From IMG/VR virus record IMGVR_UViG_3300046519_000060, positions 1 through 64,000 of that record: a DNA stretch of 64,000 nucleotides; one strand, given 5' to 3'. Below the pieces are notes generated by a model. The model ran no database searches, had not been told where the DNA came from, and saw only the letters and a program-made list of their open reading frames with translations. This stretch comes from a virus (Duplodnaviria; Heunggongvirae; Uroviricota; Caudoviricetes). The position numbers and the translations under genes were made by a program. Numbering within the stretch: the stretch's first letter is position 1; every line of letters begins with the position of its first letter. Of this stretch, positions 3,329-44,505 are shown in pieces.

Positions 3329-3517
3329 ATGACGCGGGTCATCATACCGGTGAAGGATGGGAAGGGTGAGTGGATCGCGACTCGCAACCATCCCGGCGAA
3401 GCATGGGATGTCACGCATCCCCAAGGTCACTTCCAGTACTTCGGGAACACGCAGCAAGTCAAGACGTTGATGTTGAATATTCAGTACTTACAGAACAAGC
3501 ACGACGCAGAAAAGTAG
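3329..3517 (+). CDS. hypothetical protein
   Basis: track ORF 3317..3517; ATG at 3329. Confidence 0.4.
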   Translation: MTRVIIPVKDGKGEWIATRNHPGEAWDVTHPQGHFQYFGNTQQVKTLMLNIQYLQNKHDAEK

Positions 3518-3546
3518 TTGACGAGTTCCCAAGTTTGGGGTAATAT
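3518..3546 (+). promoter_or_regulatory. sigma70-like early promoter (TTGACG-17-TAATAT)
   Basis: ttgacgagttcccaagtttggggtaatat. Confidence 0.55.
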
Positions 3547-3575
3547 TCACACATCGACAACACGGAGAGATTCAT

Positions 3576-3920
3576 ATGAACTTGAACACGGATCACGCTG
3601 GTCGCGGTGTGGATGCCCTGAACGGGATTTTCGACGGCATGTTGACAAACCTTCAACACCAGTGGAAGCGCGAAGCAATGATCCTGAACGAATCGCAAGT
3701 CGAAGCCATCTACAGCGCGATGTGCGCACTCAACAACATCAGCGGCATCGTGCATGTTGTGATGCCCGGACAGACAGCGGGTGACACGATCACCGTGTTC
3801 CAAGAAGTGATGTCCCATGAAGTGGTCGTGATTCTCCGCTCGATGATCGAAGCGGAACCGGTCAAGACCGAACGCTACAAGGACCAAGGCGAGTTCGCGC
3901 AAGCCTACGGTCTGGACTAA
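3576..3920 (+). CDS. hypothetical protein
   Basis: 114 aa; leader cacggagagattcatATG identical to the 3177 gene leader. Confidence 0.5.
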   Translation: MNLNTDHAGRGVDALNGIFDGMLTNLQHQWKREAMILNESQVEAIYSAMCALNNISGIVHVVMPGQTAGDTITVFQEVMSHEVVVILRSMIEAEPVKTERYKDQGEFAQAYGLD

Positions 3921-3953
3921 AATACAAAAACTATCAACCGCGAGGAAACCAAA

Positions 3954-4151
3954 ATGAGTCTGACCCGTAGCGAAAGCGAACTGATGCGGCAACGTGAGGA
4001 AGAACTGAACGATGCTGAACGTGCCGTCATCAACGTGACCTTCGATGCCCTGTACGAAGCTGCGCAGGATCGTAGTGTCAAGTTGGCAAAGGATGACCGT
4101 GCGGCGGCGCTCGAAGCCGCGATGGTCCGATTCATTCTCGCTTCACGATAA
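3954..4151 (+). CDS. hypothetical protein
   Basis: 65 aa; RBS gaggaaacc. Confidence 0.45.
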   Translation: MSLTRSESELMRQREEELNDAERAVINVTFDALYEAAQDRSVKLAKDDRAAALEAAMVRFILASR

Positions 4152-4162
4152 GGAAGGCACCA

Positions 4163-4462
4163 ATGAACAAAGACCGACGCAAACGCCTCAACGACGCCCA
4201 TCAACAGTTGGATGAAATCAAGACAGCCTTCGAAGAACTGTTGGGGAAGGCCGATGATGTCAAAGCTGCCATCGAAGCGATTCGCGACGAGGAACAGGAA
4301 GCCTTCGACAACATGAGTGCCGGTAAGCAAGAAGGCGAGACTGGTCAGGCGATGGAAGCGGTCGTAGAAGACCTGAACAGCGTAATCGAGTTCATCGAAA
4401 CCCTGTCCGATGTCGGTTTCGATGAACCCCTCGAACTGATCGCTAACGCAGCAAGTAGTTAA
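4163..4462 (+). CDS. hypothetical acidic coiled-coil protein
   Basis: 99 aa; RBS aaggaagg. Confidence 0.5.
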   Translation: MNKDRRKRLNDAHQQLDEIKTAFEELLGKADDVKAAIEAIRDEEQEAFDNMSAGKQEGETGQAMEAVVEDLNSVIEFIETLSDVGFDEPLELIANAASS

Positions 4463-4495
4463 ACCTAACCAACTAGAATCCGAGAGTACCGCATC

Positions 4496-4846
4496 ATGGC
4501 AAACCAAAAAGACCCGATCACAGTCCGCGTCGAAACCAACCTGTTCGAACAGGAGCTTCGCTACCGGTTTCAGAAAAACGCGTTCGAAGGTCGAATCTTG
4601 TTGTTCTGCTTGAAGTGGGGTACTGTCATCGCCCTCATTCTGGGCTTCGTTTGTTACCACTACGGCCTTCTGGATGCTGACTCCGCAACGTGGCAGAAGA
4701 TCAACGCGTGGTCGCAGCAACAGGAAGCAGAGAAGCACGAAGCGGTCTACGGTCACTCAAAGACAGTTGAGCAGTTGAACAACGAGCAACAACAAGCGAT
4801 GTTGTGTCGCAATCACTCGCCGTACTGCGAGAATAACGGCGAGTGA
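4496..4846 (+). CDS. hypothetical membrane protein
   Basis: 116 aa with hydrophobic segment ILLFCLKWGTVIALILGFVCYHYGLL. Confidence 0.5.
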   Translation: MANQKDPITVRVETNLFEQELRYRFQKNAFEGRILLFCLKWGTVIALILGFVCYHYGLLDADSATWQKINAWSQQQEAEKHEAVYGHSKTVEQLNNEQQQAMLCRNHSPYCENNGE

Positions 4847-4856
4847 TTCTCTCAAT

Positions 4857-5048
4857 GTGAGGATTCGCATGTCGATGAAACTAGCACGTAAGGCCATCCG
4901 GCTTTTCAGTAACCCCGATAACCCGAAGTCGTTGAACCGAAGGATGCAGCGGCAATGGCTACGCAGCATGGAGTTCCTTGGGGACCGGCACTGCTTGCGT
5001 AAGGTCATGCCACGCATGACGGACGGCGACACTCGAATCCTTCGATAA
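4857..5048 (+). CDS. hypothetical basic protein
   Basis: 63 aa Arg-rich ORF; weak. Confidence 0.3.
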   Translation: MRIRMSMKLARKAIRLFSNPDNPKSLNRRMQRQWLRSMEFLGDRHCLRKVMPRMTDGDTRILR

Positions 5049-14525: not shown

Positions 14526-15323
14526 ATGAAAACCATTAAAATCGTGCTTCTTTCGTTGGTAGTCCTCATGATGGCCGCGTGCGGTCGAATTGATACGGGT
14601 CACACTGGCGTCCGCACAAGCTGGAACAAGCAAGTACAACAAGAAGTCGTGCATCCGGGCGCTTACCTTGCGGTGACTGACTCGGTGCAACAGTACGTGA
14701 CCAACGAAGTCACGTTCATCGTGAAGAACCTTCAACCGCAAACTGCGGACAAGACGTACCTGAAAGACCTCGATTTCACGTACACGTATCAAGTCGATGC
14801 GAATGATCTTCCGAATCTGGTGACAACGTTCAAGAATCGAACGCTGGTTAATGGCGACGACTATTATCCGATGGGTTCCTACGTCGATACTCAGATTCGT
14901 GCAGCGGCATATGCGGCAGTCTCGAAATTCAACGCGATGGAAGCGAATTCGCACCGTACCGACATCGAGAGTGACATCAAGCAAATCGTTGCAGCCAAGT
15001 TCGCGGAAGAAGGTCTGGACAAGACGATCCACGTCAAGCAAGTGACGGTGAACAACGTCGAAGTCGATCCGAAGCTTCAAGAAGCCGTGGTTCGTCAGTT
15101 GAACGCAGTCATCGACAACAAGACGAAAGATACCGAAATCGACACGGCGAAGAAAGAAGCGAGTCGTATGGAACAGTTGACGAATAACGCCAACAACACC
15201 GGCTACATCGCGCTGCTGAACGCACAGGCCAACATGAAGATCGCAGAAGGCATCGCCAATGGCCGCGTGAACACCATCGTCGTGCCGACCGACTTCAAGG
15301 GCATCGTGAACACGGCGAAGTAA
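14526..15323 (+). CDS. lipoprotein, possibly SPFH/band-7-like
   Basis: signal/lipobox LMMAAC at N-terminus; 265 aa. Confidence 0.5.
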   Translation: MKTIKIVLLSLVVLMMAACGRIDTGHTGVRTSWNKQVQQEVVHPGAYLAVTDSVQQYVTNEVTFIVKNLQPQTADKTYLKDLDFTYTYQVDANDLPNLVTTFKNRTLVNGDDYYPMGSYVDTQIRAAAYAAVSKFNAMEANSHRTDIESDIKQIVAAKFAEEGLDKTIHVKQVTVNNVEVDPKLQEAVVRQLNAVIDNKTKDTEIDTAKKEASRMEQLTNNANNTGYIALLNAQANMKIAEGIANGRVNTIVVPTDFKGIVNTAK

Positions 15324-15571
15324 TGGCAACGACTGACGACATCCTGTACGGCGATGACAACCTCTGGAAGCTGCGTGGTGCAGAGGCGTCCGAAGTCATC
15401 GCCCAAAAGATCGAAGCGATGAAGCGCCTGTATCAAGAAGTCATCGCCATCGCGGACAACGCCGATCTAAGCGTGCATGTGACGTTCAGCTTCCCGGAAG
15501 GGCTGACGACCGGCCACAACGAATACTTCCGCCCAGAAGTCGCGTGGAACCCTTCTTCGAAATATTGCTGA
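15323..15571 (+). CDS. hypothetical protein
   Basis: TAATG overlap. Confidence 0.45.
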   Translation: MATTDDILYGDDNLWKLRGAEASEVIAQKIEAMKRLYQEVIAIADNADLSVHVTFSFPEGLTTGHNEYFRPEVAWNPSSKYC

Positions 15572-24361: not shown

Positions 24362-25426
24362 ATGAAGAAATTTCTCGTTGGTATTTTGTTGTCCTTAGTA
24401 ACGGTCATCGCATTCGCGTTGCCGTCTCCCCGCCAAATCGAAGATGCACTCGCGGCAAACCGCTATAGCGATGCACAGTCGATGGTGTCACAAGTCCTTC
24501 GTGAACGTCCCGATTCGGCGCGTGCGCACCTTCTCAACGCGTACCTACTGATCCACGTCAACCATGACAAGACCGCCGCCAATGCTGAACTGAACACGGC
24601 TGCTGGTCTGGATCGGAACGGTGACGTGAAGAACAGTCCGCTGTTCGGTCGTGTGGTCGGTGAAATCGACACGTATCAGGGCGCTACGCGATCCGCGCCG
24701 CGTCAGGTTGTGCAGAGTGGTCCGATGGTGCAGCAAGCCGCTGTAAGCCCTGTGGCGCAGTCTGAACCGGAAAAGAAAGGCGAAAGTCATCTGTTGCTCT
24801 GGCTGTTTGTGTTCTTCGGTGTCGTCGCAGTTCTCGCGTACCTGCTGATCCGTGGTGCGAATCGTCGTGAACGTGAAGAAGCGAGCGCCTATACGCCGTA
24901 CACGACGCGTGGTAGCCGTCAGTTGACCCAGACGCGCAGTGGTGGAACCTATACGGCCCCGTACAATCCGCCGCCTGTGCCGCTCGATCCGTACACCCCG
25001 GCAGTGGTCTTTCACCAACCGGCCCCGGTTCAAGTCGTGCAGCAAGCGCCGCAACAGTCGTTCGGAAGTCAAGTCGCAGCAACCGCATCCGGTGTCGTCG
25101 TCGGTGAACTGATTCACGATGCCCTCACTAGCAGCAAGCATCATTCCCGGACGTGGGAAGAACCGGTTCGAGAACGCGAAGTTGTTCGTGAACGTGACCC
25201 GGATTGGGGTTCCCCGGCACGTAGTTCGTACACTCGCGACGAATCCCCGGTGTCGTATAGCAACGAACGTTCCTCGTTCTCGTCGTCCAGTCGCGACGAT
25301 GATAGCTGGTCGTCGGGCAGTAGTTCGAGCAGTTCGAGTAGTTCCGATAGTAGCTGGTCCAGTGGTTCCGATTCATCGTCCTCGTCGTGGGATAGCGGTA
25401 GCAGTTCGAGTAGTTCCGACTGGTAA
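24362..25426 (+). CDS. membrane-anchored protein with signal peptide, central TM helix and Ser-rich C-terminal tail
   Basis: MKKFLVGILLSLVTVIAFA signal; LLLWLFVFFGVVAVLAYLLI TM; C-terminus SWSSGSSSSSSSSSDSSWSSGSDSSSSSWDSGSSSSSSDW. Confidence 0.5.
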   Translation: MKKFLVGILLSLVTVIAFALPSPRQIEDALAANRYSDAQSMVSQVLRERPDSARAHLLNAYLLIHVNHDKTAANAELNTAAGLDRNGDVKNSPLFGRVVGEIDTYQGATRSAPRQVVQSGPMVQQAAVSPVAQSEPEKKGESHLLLWLFVFFGVVAVLAYLLIRGANRREREEASAYTPYTTRGSRQLTQTRSGGTYTAPYNPPPVPLDPYTPAVVFHQPAPVQVVQQAPQQSFGSQVAATASGVVVGELIHDALTSSKHHSRTWEEPVREREVVRERDPDWGSPARSSYTRDESPVSYSNERSSFSSSSRDDDSWSSGSSSSSSSSSDSSWSSGSDSSSSSWDSGSSSSSSDW

Positions 25427-25475: not shown

Positions 25476-25505
25476 TTGACACGCAATCCTCATTTGAAAT
25501 ACAAT
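25476..25505 (+). promoter_or_regulatory. sigma70-like promoter (TTGACA-18-TACAAT)
   Basis: ttgacacgcaatcctcatttgaaatacaat. Confidence 0.4.
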
Positions 25506-25551: not shown

Positions 25552-25809
25552 ATGCAGTTCCGCACTACCGATATTCATGGCGTGTTCGTGTACGAAATGT
25601 CCGACACGTTCGGGTGGTCCGAGAAGGTCAAGGACTACTACAACAAGGGCGACATCATCGATGTAGATTTCGATGTCGTAATCGAAACCCACTTCACCAG
25701 TGACTTCCTGAACGGCAAGCTGATCGCAGTCGATGAAGAAGCGAAGGCATGGGCGGCACCATTGTTGGAAATGATGAAGTCGTCCAAGGAAGTAGAAGAA
25801 GTACAGTAA
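25552..25809 (+). CDS. hypothetical protein
   Basis: RBS tgggagtag. Confidence 0.45.
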   Translation: MQFRTTDIHGVFVYEMSDTFGWSEKVKDYYNKGDIIDVDFDVVIETHFTSDFLNGKLIAVDEEAKAWAAPLLEMMKSSKEVEEVQ

Positions 25810-25871
25810 CAAATCATCGTGGTGTTGAAGTAGATGAAACACCTCCCACGACGCAATAGAGAAGGCGACCT

Positions 25872-26234
25872 ATGACTCAAATCACGTTTCAGCACCAACT
25901 TAGCATCCATGACATCACCGATGTTCGTAATGGTCGCGACAATCTTGAAGTAACCTGCAAACTCGATGAAGTTCAACAGAAACGTGTGGTCGCAGAGCAA
26001 GAGCACAACACCCTCATCGGCGAAATCAAGGACCGTGGCTTCGTCGTCCTGACCCGCGCAGAAGCGGAAGATATGAAAGACGACATCGAAGCTGGCGAAT
26101 GTCTGGTCCAGATGATGGAAGAAGCGTCGGGCCTCTGGGAAAGCAACCCGGAAGAAGCGGCCAAGAAGATGACGCACATCATGTTCGTGGCGACTGGCAA
26201 GAAGCTTCAATTCGCTGGTGCATTGGCAGCATAA
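25872..26234 (+). CDS. hypothetical protein
   Basis: 120 aa. Confidence 0.45.
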   Translation: MTQITFQHQLSIHDITDVRNGRDNLEVTCKLDEVQQKRVVAEQEHNTLIGEIKDRGFVVLTRAEAEDMKDDIEAGECLVQMMEEASGLWESNPEEAAKKMTHIMFVATGKKLQFAGALAA

Positions 26235-26266
26235 ACCCAACAACAGAAGTAGAGAACTAAAGAAAG

Positions 26267-26578
26267 ATGTCGAGCAACCTGATTAACAGCCCGGAAGCAA
26301 AGAAGCGTTTCAACAACAAGCTTCAAGAGATTTCGGGCAGCATGACCCGTATCGAAGGCGAACGCGACCTTATCAAGACGATCACTTCCGACTTGGCGGA
26401 AGAATTCCAGATTGATAAGAAGATCGTGGCACGCATGGCAAAGACGTATCACAAGCAGTCCTTCAAAGATACGGTCGCTGCTGACGACGAATTCACGACG
26501 ATCTATCAAATCGTGACGGGCGAAGAAGCTGCACAGTTCGCGGATGATGCACCCTACAACGGGGACGCCGACGAATGA
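26267..26578 (+). CDS. hypothetical protein
   Basis: 103 aa. Confidence 0.45.
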   Translation: MSSNLINSPEAKKRFNNKLQEISGSMTRIEGERDLIKTITSDLAEEFQIDKKIVARMAKTYHKQSFKDTVAADDEFTTIYQIVTGEEAAQFADDAPYNGDADE

Positions 26579-26826
26579 ACATCTACGGCGGCAGCAAAGA
26601 AGTGCAAGCGTTGATTAAAGAGAAGTTGGAGCAAGTGAACAACCTCTTTCGTGAAGTCGGCGCACTGGCAGAAGAACACGATGTATCGGTGTCCACGAAC
26701 ATTCTGGACATCTGGGGAACGGGACTGACGTACATCCCGCCTTCGGAAAAAGAAGATATGAGCGAATCGTATCTGGAAGAACTGCAAGACAATGAAGGCT
26801 GGCAAGCATCCGCTTCGTCCTGCTAA
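26575..26826 (+). CDS. GW-SS-C tail family small protein, member 1
   Basis: ends EGWQASASSC; shares AEEHDVSV...D...Y core with five paralogs. Confidence 0.5.
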   Translation: MNIYGGSKEVQALIKEKLEQVNNLFREVGALAEEHDVSVSTNILDIWGTGLTYIPPSEKEDMSESYLEELQDNEGWQASASSC

Positions 26827-26853
26827 CAACGAACCACACTGAGATAGACCAAC

Positions 26854-27192
26854 ATGCAACTGAACCGTGAAGAAGCCCAAGTTTTCCTGAACATGATCGG
26901 AACCAACGTGACCGATAGTTCGATGTCGGTTCTGGACAAGATCGAGAATTCATTCCCCGATCTGGTTCGCAATACGACCTACGCACCGATTCTTCGCGAC
27001 TGGCGTTCGAATCGCGAGAAGCAGAAGAAGTCGGCAATGGCCGAAATCAGCAAGCAACTCGCAAACGTCCGTGGTTCGCTGGCTGAGTGCGAACGCATCG
27101 CGAAGTCCGCTGGCATCGGCTTTGTTCTCGATGTCGCTGACGTGGAACTGGAATTCACGGCGAAAGATGGTTGGTCGTCGTCCTACTGCTAA
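26854..27192 (+). CDS. GW-SS-C tail family small protein, member 2
   Basis: ends DGWSSSYC. Confidence 0.5.
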   Translation: MQLNREEAQVFLNMIGTNVTDSSMSVLDKIENSFPDLVRNTTYAPILRDWRSNREKQKKSAMAEISKQLANVRGSLAECERIAKSAGIGFVLDVADVELEFTAKDGWSSSYC

Positions 27193-27211
27193 ACAAGACG
27201 AAGAAGAAAAC

Positions 27212-27442
27212 ATGACACAAGAAATCACGCAAGAACAGAAGCAAGAAGCTTTGCGCCTGATCGCGGAACAAGTCAAGATCGCGGAAGAAGCACTCGCGAA
27301 GGCCGAACAGTTGGCAAAGGAAGCGCAGGTTGGCTTCGACTTCACGTTCGACGGCATCACCGGTTCGTACTATACGCACAAGTACGGTGCAACCGGCGCT
27401 GTTGCCGGGTACTACGATGGTTGGGAAGGGTCATCCTGCTGA
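27212..27442 (+). CDS. GW-SS-C tail family small protein, member 3
   Basis: ends DGWEGSSC; ATG at 27212 after gaagaagaaaacATG. Confidence 0.45.
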   Translation: MTQEITQEQKQEALRLIAEQVKIAEEALAKAEQLAKEAQVGFDFTFDGITGSYYTHKYGATGAVAGYYDGWEGSSC

Positions 27443-27756
27443 TGGACAAGAAATTCCTCTCAGAGCGCAAGAAGGCCATCAAGGAAATTGCGACGGCCAC
27501 TGATGCGATCAAGCTGCATCTGAAATACATCGAGCGTCTTGCGAATCAGTACGGTATCCGTGTTGAACTCGATGGATTCCCGCGAACTGGTTATGACGGT
27601 GATGCGTGGTATGTGCCGGAACTGCCGGAAGAACTCCGAACCAAGCTGGGCGATGGGGAAGAAGTAGACCTCACCGGTACGGATTGGGAAGAATCCGCTG
27701 AGTACGACGCATACGATCAACAGTACGGCTGGAAGAACAGTTCGTCATACTGCTGA
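27442..27756 (+). CDS. GW-SS-C tail family small protein, member 4
   Basis: ends YGWKNSSSYC; TGATG overlap. Confidence 0.45.
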   Translation: MDKKFLSERKKAIKEIATATDAIKLHLKYIERLANQYGIRVELDGFPRTGYDGDAWYVPELPEELRTKLGDGEEVDLTGTDWEESAEYDAYDQQYGWKNSSSYC

Positions 27757-27760
27757 AACT

Positions 27761-27985
27761 ATGAGTGACATGACAAAAGAAGAAGCTGTGAAGTTCATTG
27801 CAGCTTTAGCGGAAAGTATCCGGCCAACACTTCGTACCATCGTTCAGGTTGCAGACGAACATGACATCGACGTGAAGCTGCTGGATGATTTTGGAAACTA
27901 CCTTCGTTACTACGGTCGTCCGTACATTGACGAATATTGCGAGATTCGCGACGAAGATGGTGGTTGGTATAGTTCACACTGCTGA
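27761..27985 (+). CDS. GW-SS-C tail family small protein, member 5
   Basis: ends GGWYSSHC. Confidence 0.5.
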   Translation: MSDMTKEEAVKFIAALAESIRPTLRTIVQVADEHDIDVKLLDDFGNYLRYYGRPYIDEYCEIRDEDGGWYSSHC

Positions 27986-27996
27986 GTAAAACAAAG

Positions 27997-28926
27997 ATGA
28001 TCGTTATTGGTTCAAAAGCACTTCTGGTGCAAGGTATTCAAACTGGTCGCAAGTCGTTTGACATCGACGTGATTGGCGAGTATGACGAAATCGTTGACTA
28101 CGCGAAGAAGTACCACGGCAATATCCGTGCGTGCTATCCGATTGATGATGGCAAGAAGCTGGTGGTCAAGACCGACCGAACGATCATCGAAGGTGAACTG
28201 ACGTGGGAAGGATCGAGCGCAGAAGCATTGCGTGACCTGATCCTTGCCGATGAAAAGACGATCTATGCGCGTGACACCGTTGGTCACAAGTTCGCGTCCC
28301 TCGATGTGCTGTACCTCTTGAAGATGTCGCATCGCTACAAGAAGAACAGTCCGCACTTCCTGAAAACGATGCGCGACATCCAGTTGATGCGCAAGCATGG
28401 CGCGACGATCCGCCCGGAACATGAGGCGTTCTACAAGCAACGGATGAAGGACACGTACACCTACGCACATCCGAAGCTGGACCAGACGAAGAAGGACTTC
28501 TTCAACGGTGACGGCGTGACGTATGTCTACGATCACGACAGCATCCATGAAGCGGTCAAGCATCTGATTAAGCCCGCCTACACGTTCTACAAGCCGGATG
28601 AAAGTGAAGTGAACTGTTCGCGGGAAATGTTCGACGCGGCCCCGAAGATCATCCGGCTGTATGGTGGTCTGGAAGAAACCTACGTGCTGGCGCTCGAACG
28701 GTCACAGATTCCCTTTGGCGATCTGTGGTCCCCAAAGAAGTCGTTTGACATGGCGCTGATGAAAGTTTGTACAAGCATCACGTCTGGTTGGTTCCGGGAA
28801 TTCTGTTGGGAGCACTACGACGAGATTCAATCTCTCTACGATCCCGAGTATGTTGAGAAGTTCTGGGCGAAAGCAATGGCCGGTGAAGTGAAACCCTATA
28901 ACGCAGAAGAAGGTATCTACGCATGA
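27997..28926 (+). CDS. hypothetical protein, possible nucleotidyltransferase-like N-terminus
   Basis: IGSKALLVQG...SFDIDVIG loosely resembles GS...D.D NTase motif; 309 aa. Confidence 0.4.
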   Translation: MIVIGSKALLVQGIQTGRKSFDIDVIGEYDEIVDYAKKYHGNIRACYPIDDGKKLVVKTDRTIIEGELTWEGSSAEALRDLILADEKTIYARDTVGHKFASLDVLYLLKMSHRYKKNSPHFLKTMRDIQLMRKHGATIRPEHEAFYKQRMKDTYTYAHPKLDQTKKDFFNGDGVTYVYDHDSIHEAVKHLIKPAYTFYKPDESEVNCSREMFDAAPKIIRLYGGLEETYVLALERSQIPFGDLWSPKKSFDMALMKVCTSITSGWFREFCWEHYDEIQSLYDPEYVEKFWAKAMAGEVKPYNAEEGIYA

Positions 28927-29264
28927 ACACCAAACTTGATGCAGCACTCGCACAAATCGAAGAAAGCGTTGGTCCCGAGTGGCGCGACGAAGCCTACAAG
29001 GTGATGCAACAGTACGCACAGATGTATCCGCACTTCTTGACCGAAGATGTCCGGGCGTTCTCGCGTGAAATCGGCATGAAGCAAGCCCACGACGACCGTG
29101 CATGGGGTCCGGTCACTTTGAAGGCCATCAAGAACGGCATCATGGCGCGAGACGGCTTCGAACTCACGAAGAAGTCCATTGGCAACCCCCGTCATCAGAT
29201 GCGCTTCAAGAGCATGATTTGCGGCGCTCCCGACCCGGTTACTGTGGAAGCCCTGTTTCAATGA
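28923..29264 (+). CDS. hypothetical protein
   Basis: ATGA overlap both ends. Confidence 0.45.
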   Translation: MNTKLDAALAQIEESVGPEWRDEAYKVMQQYAQMYPHFLTEDVRAFSREIGMKQAHDDRAWGPVTLKAIKNGIMARDGFELTKKSIGNPRHQMRFKSMICGAPDPVTVEALFQ

Positions 29265-29533
29265 GTATCAAGAAAGACAAAGAACTGATCGTCAAGGCGA
29301 TCAATGCGAAGCTGGCGCAAGCGGATGTCCTGCTGGCAGAATGCGTCCTATTGGCCGAAGAAGGTGGTGTGTGTTTCTCCTTGCCTTGGGGCGGTGAAGG
29401 AACGTCGCAGAGAGGCATGGGTGCAACCTACGTCCCCGAGACGGCATCTGAGCTAGAAAAGCGGTACAACTGCAACGAATCGTGGAACGGTGAGTATCAA
29501 GCCGGTTGGCAACCGTCCGCGCAAAGCTGCTAA
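29261..29533 (+). CDS. GW-SS-C tail family small protein, member 6
   Basis: ends AGWQPSAQSC; AEEGGVCFSLPWGGEG core aligns with paralogs. Confidence 0.45.
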   Translation: MSIKKDKELIVKAINAKLAQADVLLAECVLLAEEGGVCFSLPWGGEGTSQRGMGATYVPETASELEKRYNCNESWNGEYQAGWQPSAQSC

Positions 29534-29540
29534 GAAGTAG

Positions 29541-29568
29541 TTGACAAAGATGGGGATTCGCGTAGAAT
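29541..29568 (+). promoter_or_regulatory. sigma70-like promoter with inverted repeat
   Basis: ttgacaaagatggggattcgcgtagaat; ggggattc / gaatcccc palindrome. Confidence 0.5.
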
Positions 29569-29602
29569 CCCCATCATCGTTTCTACAGCACGGATCAGTC
29601 AC

Positions 29603-29890
29603 ATGAAGAAGCAGAAACAAATTCGCGCATCGACGGTCAACAAGGCAATCGCTGATCTGGGTGGCAAGGAAATTCTGGTCAAGGGTGACGGCTACTGGTA
29701 CTTCGCGGAAGGCGATTCCGCACAGTGGCCGTCAGCATCGGTCTACTGCTACAACCTGAACACCTATTCGCTGGAAGAATGGGTTCGCTTCTGGAAACAC
29801 TATCGCGACAAGTATCTCGCGGAAAAGGAAAACCGGATCAAGCCTGAGTACACGAAGGATGGTGCGCTAAAGATTCGTTCATGGCGATAA
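29603..29890 (+). CDS. hypothetical protein
   Basis: 95 aa. Confidence 0.45.
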   Translation: MKKQKQIRASTVNKAIADLGGKEILVKGDGYWYFAEGDSAQWPSASVYCYNLNTYSLEEWVRFWKHYRDKYLAEKENRIKPEYTKDGALKIRSWR

Positions 29891-29954
29891 ATAATGTGTG
29901 GCCCTTGGGCTACGAAGTCTAATAATTCTGTCAAACAGTAGCCCAAAGGACACC

Positions 29955-30833
29955 ATGAAAACATTCTTCCAACTGCGCAATTACCTGAACGATCTTCCGC
30001 TGATTAGCGAAGAACTTCACCAGTCGATCCACGATGTTCTGGACTCGGAACACATCGCACCCGAACACAAGCTGAACCACGTCTCGGCAGCGATCCGTAC
30101 CGCGATCAAGCGTGGCGAAGATCATGGTCTGGAAGATGCAAAGCCCAAGAAGGGTTCCAGTCGTGCCGTGTTCTTCCCGAAAGACCCGCACAAGCTGAAA
30201 ATCGATGGCGTCGATACGCACATGCCTACGGCCCTCAAAGTGGCGTTCCCCGGCGCACTGGACAAGTACAAGACCCACGATGAACCGCTGCTTGGTGAGG
30301 AACAGAACCGCGTAGAAGGCGATCACTGGACCAACCAAGAGTACGGCGTTCTACGTCAGGGCGACCGTCATGGTGAGTACCATACGAACGAACACGGCTT
30401 CCTCGCGCCGATGCTGCACGCGCATGACGAAGGGCATCACATCCACTTCGGCAAGATCGAACCCATCAAGGCGGGCGACTTCCAGAAGCACACAGTTGCG
30501 CCGGGATTCCCGAAGGGCATTAGCCATCAGGAAATGTTCGACTACCTGAACCATCATCACGAAGAAGCGCACGGCAAGTCCTACACAGGCAAGACCTCAC
30601 CGGAACGTATCGAGAAGCTTGACGAGCATCCCATGCTCAGTAACATGCACTCATGGATGGGGAACACTGGTGCGCACCCGGCTGATCTGAACAAACGCAA
30701 CATGGGTATGTGGACGCATCCTGTAACTGGTAAGAAACATGTCGTGGTCAGTGACTACGGCTTCACCGGCGATGTCGCGAAGCAATACATGCAGCGTCGT
30801 CAACGCATGAGCAAAGCTAATAGGGGTTGGTAA
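29955..30833 (+). CDS. His-rich hypothetical protein (paralog family)
   Basis: GDRHGEYHTNEHGFLAPMLHAHDEGHHIHFG; ATG 29955 after caaaggacaccATG. Confidence 0.5.
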   Translation: MKTFFQLRNYLNDLPLISEELHQSIHDVLDSEHIAPEHKLNHVSAAIRTAIKRGEDHGLEDAKPKKGSSRAVFFPKDPHKLKIDGVDTHMPTALKVAFPGALDKYKTHDEPLLGEEQNRVEGDHWTNQEYGVLRQGDRHGEYHTNEHGFLAPMLHAHDEGHHIHFGKIEPIKAGDFQKHTVAPGFPKGISHQEMFDYLNHHHEEAHGKSYTGKTSPERIEKLDEHPMLSNMHSWMGNTGAHPADLNKRNMGMWTHPVTGKKHVVVSDYGFTGDVAKQYMQRRQRMSKANRGW

Positions 30834-42304: not shown

Positions 42305-42335
42305 AAAAGCCCGCGAAAGCGGGCTTTTTTGTTTT
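42305..42335. terminator. bidirectional rho-independent terminator
   Basis: aaaagcccgcgaaagcgggctttttt between convergent genes. Confidence 0.8.
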
Positions 42336-44505
42336 ACAGCACGAATGCACCAAGCATTGCGCGGTCGAAGTATGACTCGCGAGTACGCGGCGAAGCTGTA
42401 CTCGGCATCACCTTCAAATCACCGCCACTTCCACCGCCTTGAACGTTGGTCGTCGGAGCATGGACGATTACAGGCGCTTTGGCTTCCTGCTTGGTCACTT
42501 CCTTGTGTTCGGCAGACGCTTTCGCAACCTGCTTGCCACTATCGTTCTTATCGTTCGCGGCCCACAATCCACCAAGCTTCCGACCGGCCCAATCACCAAG
42601 TTCGCTACCGCCGAACGCACCGGCTGCACCGCCGATCAAACCGCCCGCCACAGTGCCAACACCCGGCATGATGAACGAACCGATTGCTGCACCCGCTGCG
42701 GCCCCGGCTTCTGCACCGGCCCATCCACCCGCTACCGCGCCAGTTCCACCGCCTACAGCTTTCGCCTTGGCTTCCTTGGCCTGTTGTGCCGTCAGCTTGC
42801 CCGACTTCTGCAACTTGTCGGCGTCCGAATACTCGTTATAAGCGTCATAGGCCGTGATTGCGGTCCCGGCAATACCCAACACCTTACCGGCGTGTCCCAA
42901 GCCCTTAGAAACCTTGCCAAGCGCCTTTCCTGCACCCTTAGCTTCGCCTTCCAGACCTTCGGCAGCTTTGGCCGCTGCTTTGCCTTCGTTCGTACCCTTC
43001 AACTTCTCGGCTTCGCCCGATACTTTCTCTTTGGCCTTGACCTTTTCCTTCTCGCTGACCTTTTCTTTTTCGGCCTTACCCTTTCCGCCGCCAAGCAGTG
43101 CAGGAAGCAGACTCGCTACATCGGGCAAACCAAGACCGCCATCGTCGCCCTTACCATCATCTGCGGGTTTGAGTGCAGATTCATCATTGCGCACGCCCAC
43201 ATCGTTGTCTTTGTAGGTGTCCTTGAATGAATCGATCAGTGTCGCATGGTTGCCGATGACTGATGTGACCGGCATCGCTGCAACTGCACCCGATACGGCT
43301 GACGCCATCGGAGACATGTTTGTACGAAGCGGGGTCATGGGGTTGCCCTTGACCTTGATTGGTTCGATGTCCTTATAAGCAACGTCAGTGACATCCTGAA
43401 CCGGACGACTCTTTACCTTGACCTTACCTTCTGGCGCTGTCGGAACCTTCGGTACAGGCAGATAGTCACCATCCTGTTGCGTGAGAAGCGGAACTGCGGA
43501 ACCAGACGGGCCACGCTGCGTCGGCGCTTCGATCAATGACGCTGCTGCACCAGACGGCGGCGGAAGCTGCGGCTTGACTTCGAATGTTGCACTGACGCCA
43601 GACGGCGGCGGAAGTTCCGGTGTCCCGACTGGTACTGCGCTGCGACCCTTATCGTTCGGCGGCAATGTCGGCGCAACATAGAACGGCGGTTTCTTCTCGC
43701 CTTCGGCACCGCTATGGTCACGCTCAACCATCTTGACGATCAACTTCTCGACATGAAGGTTCTCGATTTTCGACGGGAATGCGCCGCCGCCAGTTCCACC
43801 CTTGCCAGACATCGCCATCACGATCTTGGACACAAGCTTTGAATCGTGGTCCTCATGTTCGCCTTGCTGACCTTCGCCCATGATGTCGTCACTCAGACGC
43901 TTCTTGACGGCTTCGGCTTGACCAAGGTTCTGCATTTCCTGCAACGGCGTGACCATGCCCTTGTGATTCACCTTGTCCATACCGGCAATGCGGCGGAACA
44001 GGGGACTCTCACGGTCCTTATCCGACATCTTGAAGAAGTTGGTCAGACGATGATCGATTTCGGCGCTGACGACGCCCTGACGCTTCCGGTTCGACGGGTC
44101 GGTGTGTTGCATACCGATGGCCGCAATCTTCTCGATCTGGGCCTTCGCTTCTGCACTACCTTCGACTTCATTGATGCGGGCAACGGCAGCTTGAAACTCC
44201 TTATGTGAACGGTCGAAGTCGTACTTGCCATCCTTGCGCAGCTTCATGAATTCTTCGATGACCTCACGGAACACTTCCTTCTGTTCCTCGGATGCCGTCT
44301 TCATGTACTGGCGCTGATCCTTCAATTCAGATGTGAACTGGCGATACGCTTCATCTACACGCTTGGTGTTACCTGACTCGTTTCCCTTGTTTGCAGATAC
44401 CTGATTGCGACGCAAAATGTCGCCAACACCGACAACTTCACTGATGAACTTGTCGTTAGCCATGCGCTGGAATTCTTGTGTCTGCTTCGATTTGGTCGCT
44501 TGCAT
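42334..44505 (-). CDS. large virion-type protein with Pro-rich linker and C-terminal glycine-zipper region
   Basis: 723 aa; GGGTGAVAGGWAGAEAGAAAGAAIGSFIMPGVGTVAGGLIGGAAGAFGG glycine zipper; PPPSG repeats. Confidence 0.55.
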   Translation of the reverse strand: MQATKSKQTQEFQRMANDKFISEVVGVGDILRRNQVSANKGNESGNTKRVDEAYRQFTSELKDQRQYMKTASEEQKEVFREVIEEFMKLRKDGKYDFDRSHKEFQAAVARINEVEGSAEAKAQIEKIAAIGMQHTDPSNRKRQGVVSAEIDHRLTNFFKMSDKDRESPLFRRIAGMDKVNHKGMVTPLQEMQNLGQAEAVKKRLSDDIMGEGQQGEHEDHDSKLVSKIVMAMSGKGGTGGGAFPSKIENLHVEKLIVKMVERDHSGAEGEKKPPFYVAPTLPPNDKGRSAVPVGTPELPPPSGVSATFEVKPQLPPPSGAAASLIEAPTQRGPSGSAVPLLTQQDGDYLPVPKVPTAPEGKVKVKSRPVQDVTDVAYKDIEPIKVKGNPMTPLRTNMSPMASAVSGAVAAMPVTSVIGNHATLIDSFKDTYKDNDVGVRNDESALKPADDGKGDDGGLGLPDVASLLPALLGGGKGKAEKEKVSEKEKVKAKEKVSGEAEKLKGTNEGKAAAKAAEGLEGEAKGAGKALGKVSKGLGHAGKVLGIAGTAITAYDAYNEYSDADKLQKSGKLTAQQAKEAKAKAVGGGTGAVAGGWAGAEAGAAAGAAIGSFIMPGVGTVAGGLIGGAAGAFGGSELGDWAGRKLGGLWAANDKNDSGKQVAKASAEHKEVTKQEAKAPVIVHAPTTNVQGGGSGGDLKVMPSTASPRTRESYFDRAMLGAFVL

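Follow-up and report, generated by a model that had tools for sequence, protein, structure and literature searches.

Small phage proteins with a shared Trp-Ser-Cys tail and a neighbouring nucleotidyltransferase point to an uncharacterised two-part system of large virulent phages

MenT toxin genes lie downstream of the genes for their antitoxins, and MenA1, an antitoxin of 68 amino acids, uses one extended helix to bind MenT1, which it switches off (PMC7450476; PMC11375011). Phages encode nucleotidyltransferases (NTases) of the polymerase beta (Pol-beta) type as well, among them RlaP (PF10127), which is associated with RNA ligase (PMC7824862; bioRxiv 10.64898/2025.12.29.696909). Here we examine a locus in which genes for small proteins with a common C-terminal tail flank the gene for a Pol-beta-type NTase. 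The locus lies in a 64,000-nucleotide stretch of DNA from a virus of the Caudoviricetes (IMG/VR record IMGVR_UViG_3300046519_000060, positions 1 to 64,000), which we refer to as the window. Altogether, our results point to the seven small proteins of the window and the toxin-like NTase gene as an uncharacterised two-part system present in many large virulent phages.

The original prediction listed six small paralogous genes in this locus, with a Cys-terminated tail for each. All six open reading frames (ORFs) are found on the plus strand at the starts it gave, all begin with ATG, and their tails read as it quoted them. They are paralogue 1 (26575-26826; 83 amino acids, tail EGWQASASSC), paralogue 2 (26854-27192; 112 amino acids, DGWSSSYC), paralogue 3 (27212-27442; 76 amino acids, DGWEGSSC), paralogue 4 (27442-27756; 104 amino acids, YGWKNSSSYC), paralogue 5 (27761-27985; 74 amino acids, GGWYSSHC) and paralogue 6 (29261-29533; 90 amino acids, AGWQPSAQSC), each tail running to the stop codon. 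These six copies are genuine, but a whole-window profile scan raised the total to seven by adding a copy at 15323-15571 (plus strand; 82 amino acids), which had been overlooked because its tail, AWNPSSKYC, has Ala-Trp in place of Gly-Trp. The seventh copy lies 11 kb from the gene cluster, and its start overlaps the stop of a gene for an SPFH/Band-7 protein (14526-15323, plus strand; Pfam PF01145, E 5e-18; PHROG 200), so its gene context differs from that of the other six. All seven proteins are acidic, with isoelectric points from 4.1, the value for paralogue 1, to 5.2.

Could the shared tail be a low-complexity coincidence among unrelated small ORFs? The tails are short and rich in Ser, which speaks for such an explanation. 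Among the 896 ORFs of at least 40 amino acids in the window, the pattern of Trp, two residues, Ser, one or three residues, Cys and stop codon occurs in exactly the seven paralogues, compared with a mean of 0.13 matches and a maximum of 1 in residue-shuffled ORFs; a terminal Cys of any kind is present in just 35 of 895 window ORFs. A hidden Markov model (HMM) made independently, from 138 cluster representatives that all come from outside the window, recovered all seven proteins and no further window ORF. Its E values were 9.9e-18, 1.8e-8, 7.8e-15, 7.8e-12, 2.7e-11 and 4e-20 for paralogues 1 to 6 and 1.6e-7 for the seventh copy. The bodies still matched when the last 10 residues were cut from both model and targets (E 2.5e-17 to 3.1e-7, with 1.4e-9 for paralogue 2 and the upper value for the seventh copy). 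The existence of 647 family clusters elsewhere and of collinear orthologues of the paralogues in related phages also counts against coincidence, to which we assign a negligible probability. Judged by these sequence comparisons, the seven proteins are homologous paralogues and a chance origin of the tail is excluded, so the possibility that the original prediction had named as its own refutation fails.

The copies in the window are only 20-36% identical to one another, and the duplications are therefore old. Paralogue 2, with a longer N-terminal extension, is the most diverged copy, and its positional orthologue in locus L008 is 54% identical to it. The orthologues P0014 and P0017 of paralogue 3 begin with the identical MTQ. 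Paralogue 6 is the copy nearest to the family consensus (LPWGGEGT.QRGMGATYVP), and its orthologues in L002 and L008 are 62-70% identical. Overall, positional orthologues of the small proteins share 51-83% identity where the enzyme shares 89%, indicating that the small bodies evolve faster.

The small proteins belong to a large family that is detectable by profiles only. Neither Pfam, NCBIfam nor PADLOC matched them, and there was no fold match either. Megablast found nothing in phage records that matched the region, and tblastn gave no match with paralogue 1 and only weak ones with paralogue 6; these searches were nearly empty because the family is too diverged. Six of the seven paralogues match PHROG 899, a family of unknown function, at E values from 7.6e-9 (paralogue 1) to 0.0085 (paralogue 4), with 2.7e-7 for paralogue 3, 6.8e-6 for paralogue 5 and 0.0021 for the seventh copy; paralogue 2 has no PHROG match. 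The matches span profile columns of about 141-221, and four of the six reach the last column. A profile search of 1.84 billion cluster representatives, with clusters counted at 50% identity, found 647 relatives at E<=1e-3, of which 43 reach E<=1e-10. The best 150 of these are nearly all 67-136 amino acids long and align to their final residue, and 160 of 169 retrieved relatives end in Cys. The homologue search proposed with the original prediction thus uncovered a large, phage-restricted family and not a peculiarity of the window. The original prediction recognised no T4 early gene family in these proteins, and indeed a scan of the entire T4 genome found neither the small family nor the enzyme; it missed that the family is large and already catalogued as PHROG 899. 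Some phages (loci L058, at 3384-4999, and L065) carry at least five tandem, highly diverged copies that fall below the HMM threshold and end in variant tails (FW[IV]PSSM[SE]C and GWS[AT]SS[LM].C); family size and copy number are therefore underestimated.

The tail is the most constant part of these proteins. In 308 non-identical family members, a terminal Cys is present in 287, and it follows the last Trp by 7 residues in 236 members and by 5 in 42. Ser occupies position W+3 in 97-100% of members and Gly position W-1 in 52-79%, and Ser is also found at W+4 in 82% of the long-spacing tails. The hallmark forms are accordingly G-W-x-[S/P/A]-S-[S/A]-x-x-C and G-W-x-[S/G]-S-x-C, both at the C-terminus, and all seven window proteins satisfy the definition W-x-x-S-x(1,3)-C. 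The Trp, Ser and Cys of the tail are the sole near-universal positions in the family. The body consensus consists of an N-terminal helix, then A-x-E-x-G-V-x-F and then Y-G-M-G-G-x-Y-x-P; the internal core noted in the original prediction corresponds to the family consensus A-x-E-x-G-(V/I)-x-F. About 7% of members continue for 1-3 residues beyond the Cys, and in 57 of the 308 the final 60 residues contain two or three W-x-x-S units within an acidic linker (for example DWDSSGCEWDNSGC...GWNASSAHC). A free carboxylate is thus not strictly required, and a chemistry that strictly needs a free alpha-carboxylate seems less likely, which partly weakens the suggestion of the original prediction that the C-terminus may be modified or processed. 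Each protein has one terminal Cys and about one other on average.

An AlphaFold2 (AF2) model of paralogue 6 (predicted local distance difference test score, pLDDT, 83) consists of a helix at residues 3-35 and a small sheet. The Gly-Trp pair falls in strand 82-85 of this sheet; confidence is low for the final three residues, which include the Cys and are not packed. Counted from the Trp, the Ser (W+3) and the Cys (W+5 or W+7) stand at odd offsets, so that an extended strand would place Ser and Cys on one face and Trp on the opposite one, an arrangement that would suit a peptide lying in a groove.

The gene that the cluster surrounds encodes a 309-amino-acid Pol-beta-type NTase (27997-28926, plus strand), with five small-family copies directly upstream, one downstream and the seventh 12 kb away. 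It consists of a DUF7277 N-domain (34.4 bits) and a DUF7275 helical domain (234.6 bits), both above the Pfam cut-off of 27, and it also matches PHROG 2141. The original prediction had seen a weak likeness to NTases at its N-terminus, and this impression proved correct. The Pol-beta catalytic signature, tested as hG[GS]-x(9-13)-D-h-[DE]-h, reads I-G5-S6...D22-I-D24 here and is invariant in all 38 aligned homologues; in a broader set it is kept in 241-243 of 246, the rest being alignment gaps or conservative substitutions. Further polar residues are invariant in the helical domain (K109, H112, K123, H180, D181, H184, E226, E227, E234, R235, K256, S260 and S263). The nearest solved folds are NTases of the MenT/AbiEii type, with MenT1, MenT3 and MenT4 as the best structural matches, and the enzyme appears to be active. 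In sequence searches, DUF1814/AbiEii (PF08843) did not match it at E<=1 in Pfam or at all in PADLOC, and a search of the PDB with the single sequence and with a profile found nothing; a weak likeness of the N-terminus to DUF6036 (E 0.0049) lies below the Pfam cut-off. RlaP was considered as an identity for the enzyme and rejected, as PF10127 is absent from the Pfam matches at E<=1.

The enzyme is widespread in phages. Clustered at 90%, its relatives number at least 2,733, and 717 of 50,697 deposited phage genomes encode it, including those of RB69-like coliphages, phAPEC8-type phages, Acinetobacter and Aeromonas T4-like phages, and jumbo phages. Distant relatives in actinophages (L131 2815-3606, Gordonia phage Cucurbita gp15; L132 2851-3597, Streptomyces phage Muntaha gp195) keep the G-S...D-x-D signature and the invariant residues of the C-domain and lack residues ~30-97 of the N-domain; no small ORFs with a W-SS-C tail were found near either gene. 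Because this segment and the small partners are absent together, the segment could be the part on which the partners dock.

How closely is the enzyme tied to the small family? We approached this from both sides. Among 80 viral loci anchored on the enzyme, 64 contain a match to the small-family HMM, every one of them on the enzyme strand, at 1-6 copies per locus. A copy lies upstream of the enzyme in 60 of the 80, and the nearest ends a median of 54 bp before the enzyme start. The 16 loci without an HMM match comprise 11 with diverged same-tail ORFs beside the enzyme, 3 that are cut off upstream and only 2 with nothing. Conversely, we took 28 loci in which a small protein of the YGMGG subtype was the anchor, and in 26 of them the enzyme follows downstream within ~1.5 kb; of the two exceptions, one is truncated and the other lies on a contig that has the enzyme gene at another place. 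The enzyme is therefore a near-obligate partner of the small family, at close range and on the same strand. The original prediction had suggested a shared binding partner for the tails, and linkage in both directions across unrelated phage lineages gives this idea strong, if indirect, support, with the flanking enzyme as a candidate.

This pairing recurs in phage lineages that otherwise share little. The T4-like window has relatives of 168-173 kb that keep six of the copies in order, and the pair is also present in Pseudomonas Otagovirus PN09, E. coli phAPEC8, Ralstonia RSP15, the jumbo phage RsoM2USA, Aeromonas phage 44RR2.8t and Acinetobacter phage AM101. In the RB69-like phage PhAPEC2, the enzyme corresponds to RB69ORF134c and its partners to ORF136c, ORF137c and ORF139c. 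In RB69-like phages, as locus L125 of PhAPEC2 shows, the module lies between homologues of T4 e.3 and e.2. These two genes adjoin each other in T4 (67.6-68.3 kb), so the module has the character of an insertion or deletion within a hyperplastic region. A protein of 377 amino acids from an ENA metagenome (P0248) has a small-family domain (...WNSSGGPAC) fused to the enzyme N-terminus; it is known from a single 3,754-bp contig and may be either a true fusion or the product of a frameshift or sequencing artefact, so its weight as evidence is low. Among 185,579 bacterial and archaeal species, represented by one genome each, we found only seven loci, all on contigs of metagenome-assembled genomes (MAGs) and including contigs binned with Saccharibacteria and Flavobacteriaceae; at least six of the seven have small ORFs of the W-x-x-S...C type upstream of the enzyme. 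We therefore rejected a bacterial origin or a prophage toxin-antitoxin context for the module.

What might a constant tail on diverging bodies be for? We favour, at a probability of roughly 0.4, a two-component module in which the small proteins serve the NTase as antitoxin-like regulators or adaptors, because the partner gene of MenAT and AbiE systems likewise lies upstream and MenA1 binds MenT1 and switches it off. In this scheme, a long N-terminal helix and a small beta-sheet would form the body of each small protein, and its flexible C-terminal peptide, G-W-x-x-S-[S/A]-x-x-C, would dock within or close to the active site of the enzyme. The small proteins would thereby restrain the enzyme or steer it to particular targets, in parallel to the control of MenT by MenA-type proteins, and with diverged bodies behind a single tail, one enzyme would be controlled in several ways or sent to several targets. 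The substrates of the enzyme may be RNA or tRNA 3' ends. Consistent with this proposal are the two-way linkage, the absence of both components from T4, the P0248 fusion, the invariant Pol-beta motif, the analogy with MenAT, the near-universal Trp, Ser and Cys on faster-evolving bodies and the acidity of all seven proteins. Several observations weigh against it. Ordinary antitoxins do not come as diverged, individually conserved paralogues in numbers of up to seven per genome, and a Ser that is invariant looks more like an acceptor site than like a residue needed for docking alone. The actinophage relatives lack such partners, and the enzyme can apparently work alone. Virulent phages are an atypical setting for toxin-antitoxin pairs, and the paralogue at 15323-15571 is far removed from the enzyme.

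The small proteins may instead be substrates, on which the NTase places a nucleotide or phosphate at the tail Ser (W+3) and which become active only once modified. Pol-beta NTases transfer nucleoside monophosphates to hydroxyls, including those of protein Tyr, Ser and Thr, and GlnE, GlnD and MntA acting on HepT are examples of protein-modifying members. The near-invariance of Ser at W+3, the frequent second Ser at W+4 in the long-spacing class and the repetition of W-x-x-S in 57 of 308 members would all suit an acceptor site, and many bodies with one tail beside one enzyme would simply be many substrates of one enzyme, which fits the two-way linkage equally well. MenT active sites can place phosphate on Ser or Thr (PMC11375011). 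However, the closest structural relatives of the enzyme act on tRNA 3' ends and not on proteins (PMC7450476), and the equally invariant Trp and Cys are left unexplained. We regard the substrate role as the main rival, and a strong one, though somewhat less likely than the regulatory role. A more elaborate form, in which the module is a phage protein-modification system whose NTase activates the tail Ser by nucleotidylylation or phosphorylation with the paralogues as dedicated substrates, is a long shot. The modified Ser may then be the functional adduct itself, or it may be eliminated to dehydroalanine, in which case the terminal Cys (i+4 or i+2) may attack it to form a C-terminal thioether ring on a folded protein. 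This form stays in view because the Trp, Ser and Cys are near-universal, the spacings are two and discrete, the tail is flexible and the enzyme gene is adjacent.

A third reading dispenses with contact between tail and enzyme. Small, acidic, fast-evolving bodies encoded in an early region are typical of host-targeting phage proteins, one paralogue sits apart from the enzyme, and the actinophage enzymes do without partners; the tail could thus bind a host factor in early host takeover or anti-defence, with the enzyme linked through the same host pathway or by co-regulation. Co-regulation alone does not easily explain tight same-strand linkage in both directions across lineages and hosts. Moreover, the tail is conserved from phages of Escherichia to those of Ralstonia, as well as in the loci binned with Saccharibacteria and Flavobacteriaceae, so a host target would need to be universal, and we consider a host factor improbable. 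The tail could also have an intrinsic role, through packing of the Trp on the helix, metal binding or Cys redox chemistry, and no specific partner. The placement of Gly-Trp in a sheet strand of the AF2 model, by which the Trp may belong to the fold, and the small number of Cys residues in each protein are compatible with this. But the unpacked, low-confidence end of the model agrees poorly with it, and it explains neither the invariance of Ser and Cys at fixed spacings nor the internal repeats nor the gene linkage. We rejected the specific idea that the terminal Cys forms a disulfide or shares a metal site with Cys258 of the enzyme, because 15 homologues with Ala at position 258 include loci that keep Cys-tailed partners. 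A purely intrinsic role is thus very unlikely, and docking of the tail on the enzyme remains the reading we prefer.

The genes of the block are translationally coupled, as the original prediction had maintained. ATGA or TGATG overlaps join a T4 DsbA-like gene to paralogue 1 (by ATGA), paralogue 3 to paralogue 4 (whose start overlaps the paralogue 3 stop by 1 nt), the NTase to a 113-amino-acid ORF, and this ORF to paralogue 6. The remaining gaps are 4-27 nt, with 11 nt between the paralogue 5 stop and the NTase start. The DsbA-like gene (26267-26578, plus strand; Pfam Phage_DsbA, E 3.7e-10) lies directly 5' of paralogue 1, a synteny shared with L002-L004, and its presence indicates that the phage is T4-related. 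The 113-amino-acid ORF (28923-29264, plus strand) has no significant Pfam or PHROG match (best E 0.03-0.07, below the cut-offs) and was rejected as a third component of the module, as homologues are absent from all related loci, the closest relatives included. Upstream of the block, a promoter-like site at 25476-25505 (plus strand) is a consensus match only (11/12). A hairpin at 29549-29575 (plus strand), likewise a pattern match only, has an 11-pair stem, begins 16 nt past the paralogue 6 stop and possibly marks the end of the transcription unit.

Further afield, a 354-amino-acid protein (24362-25426, plus strand) has a signal-peptide-like N-terminus, TPR and DUF2076-like regions, and a final ~60 residues that are nearly all Ser, with W-S-S-G-S repeats and the end ...SSDW. 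Its likeness to the W-SS tail is superficial; it lacks the Cys and has no PHROG match. For a 723-amino-acid ORF on the minus strand (42334-44505), tblastn at E<=1e-5 found nothing among 50,697 phage records, and ARAGORN found no tRNA genes in the window (1-64000), which belongs to a JGI metagenome contig of 167,847 bp.

Both families are already catalogued, only as hypothetical or of unknown function: the small proteins as PHROG 899, and the enzyme as PHROG 2141 and DUF7277 plus DUF7275. In the library searched, no paper names the DUF or PHROG accessions or the RB69 ORFs, and none on phage NTases or anti-defence describes the module. Once recognised as one module, several early genes of each genome that are so far anonymous would form a system open to testing: a MenT-like enzyme that virulent phages carry along with tail-tagged partners of its own. 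Should the enzyme, like its structural relatives, act on the ends of tRNA or RNA, phages would be using a mechanism known to date from toxin-antitoxin and abortive-infection systems of bacteria; a modified tail would instead represent a protein modification of a new type. Under either reading, the W-x-x-S-x-x-x-C tail offers a simple searchable signature and a target for mutagenesis.

How does the module compare with described systems? In the HEPN-MNT pair HepT-MntA, an NTase gene also sits beside the gene of a small partner, and there a minimal Pol-beta NTase covalently nucleotidylylates that partner, which provides a precedent for the small proteins as substrates; the sub-threshold likeness of the enzyme N-terminus to DUF6036 is a further resemblance. 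Gene order and protein sizes differ, however, and the partner is not a HEPN protein here: no HEPN or other Pfam family was found in the small paralogues at E<=1, and their predicted fold is a single long helix with a small sheet. Clusters for ribosomally synthesised and post-translationally modified peptides (RiPPs) likewise have several tandem small genes ahead of one enzyme gene. The class III/IV lanthipeptide motif S-x-x-S-x-x-x-C has, as its lanthionine-forming spacing, the same Ser(i)...Cys(i+4) distance as the long tail. Unlike lanthipeptides, though, the proteins described here are 74-112 amino acids long and predicted to be folded, not leader-core peptides, and the adjacent enzyme is an NTase, not LanKC, LanL, LanM or LanB. 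No lanthipeptide-type modifying enzyme or cyclase was recognised among the genes at 25552-30833, where we found only the DsbA-like protein, the NTase and unknowns.

RlaP resembles the enzyme as a phage-encoded Pol-beta NTase of early and RNA-repair gene regions (PMC7824862; bioRxiv 10.64898/2025.12.29.696909), and an RNA ligase gene adjoins the module in RSP15. Unlike RlaP, the enzyme lacks PF10127, and RlaP is not described with Cys-tailed small partners. The MenAT and AbiE (DUF1814) systems are a further comparison. Both they and the module combine a Pol-beta NTase that has a helical C-domain with a partner gene immediately upstream on the same strand (criterion of PMC7450476). The one long helix of MenA1 has a possible parallel in the long N-terminal helix that AF2 predicts for the small proteins. 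The enzyme is not a member of these families at the sequence level, its module is found in virulent phages and not on bacterial chromosomes, and it has 1-7 paralogous partners instead of one. No MenA or AbiEi protein is known to carry a W-x-x-S-x-x-x-C tail. Thus, the architecture resembles that of NTase toxin-antitoxin pairs, and it differs from them in its host, in the family and number of its partners, and in the tail that those partners share.

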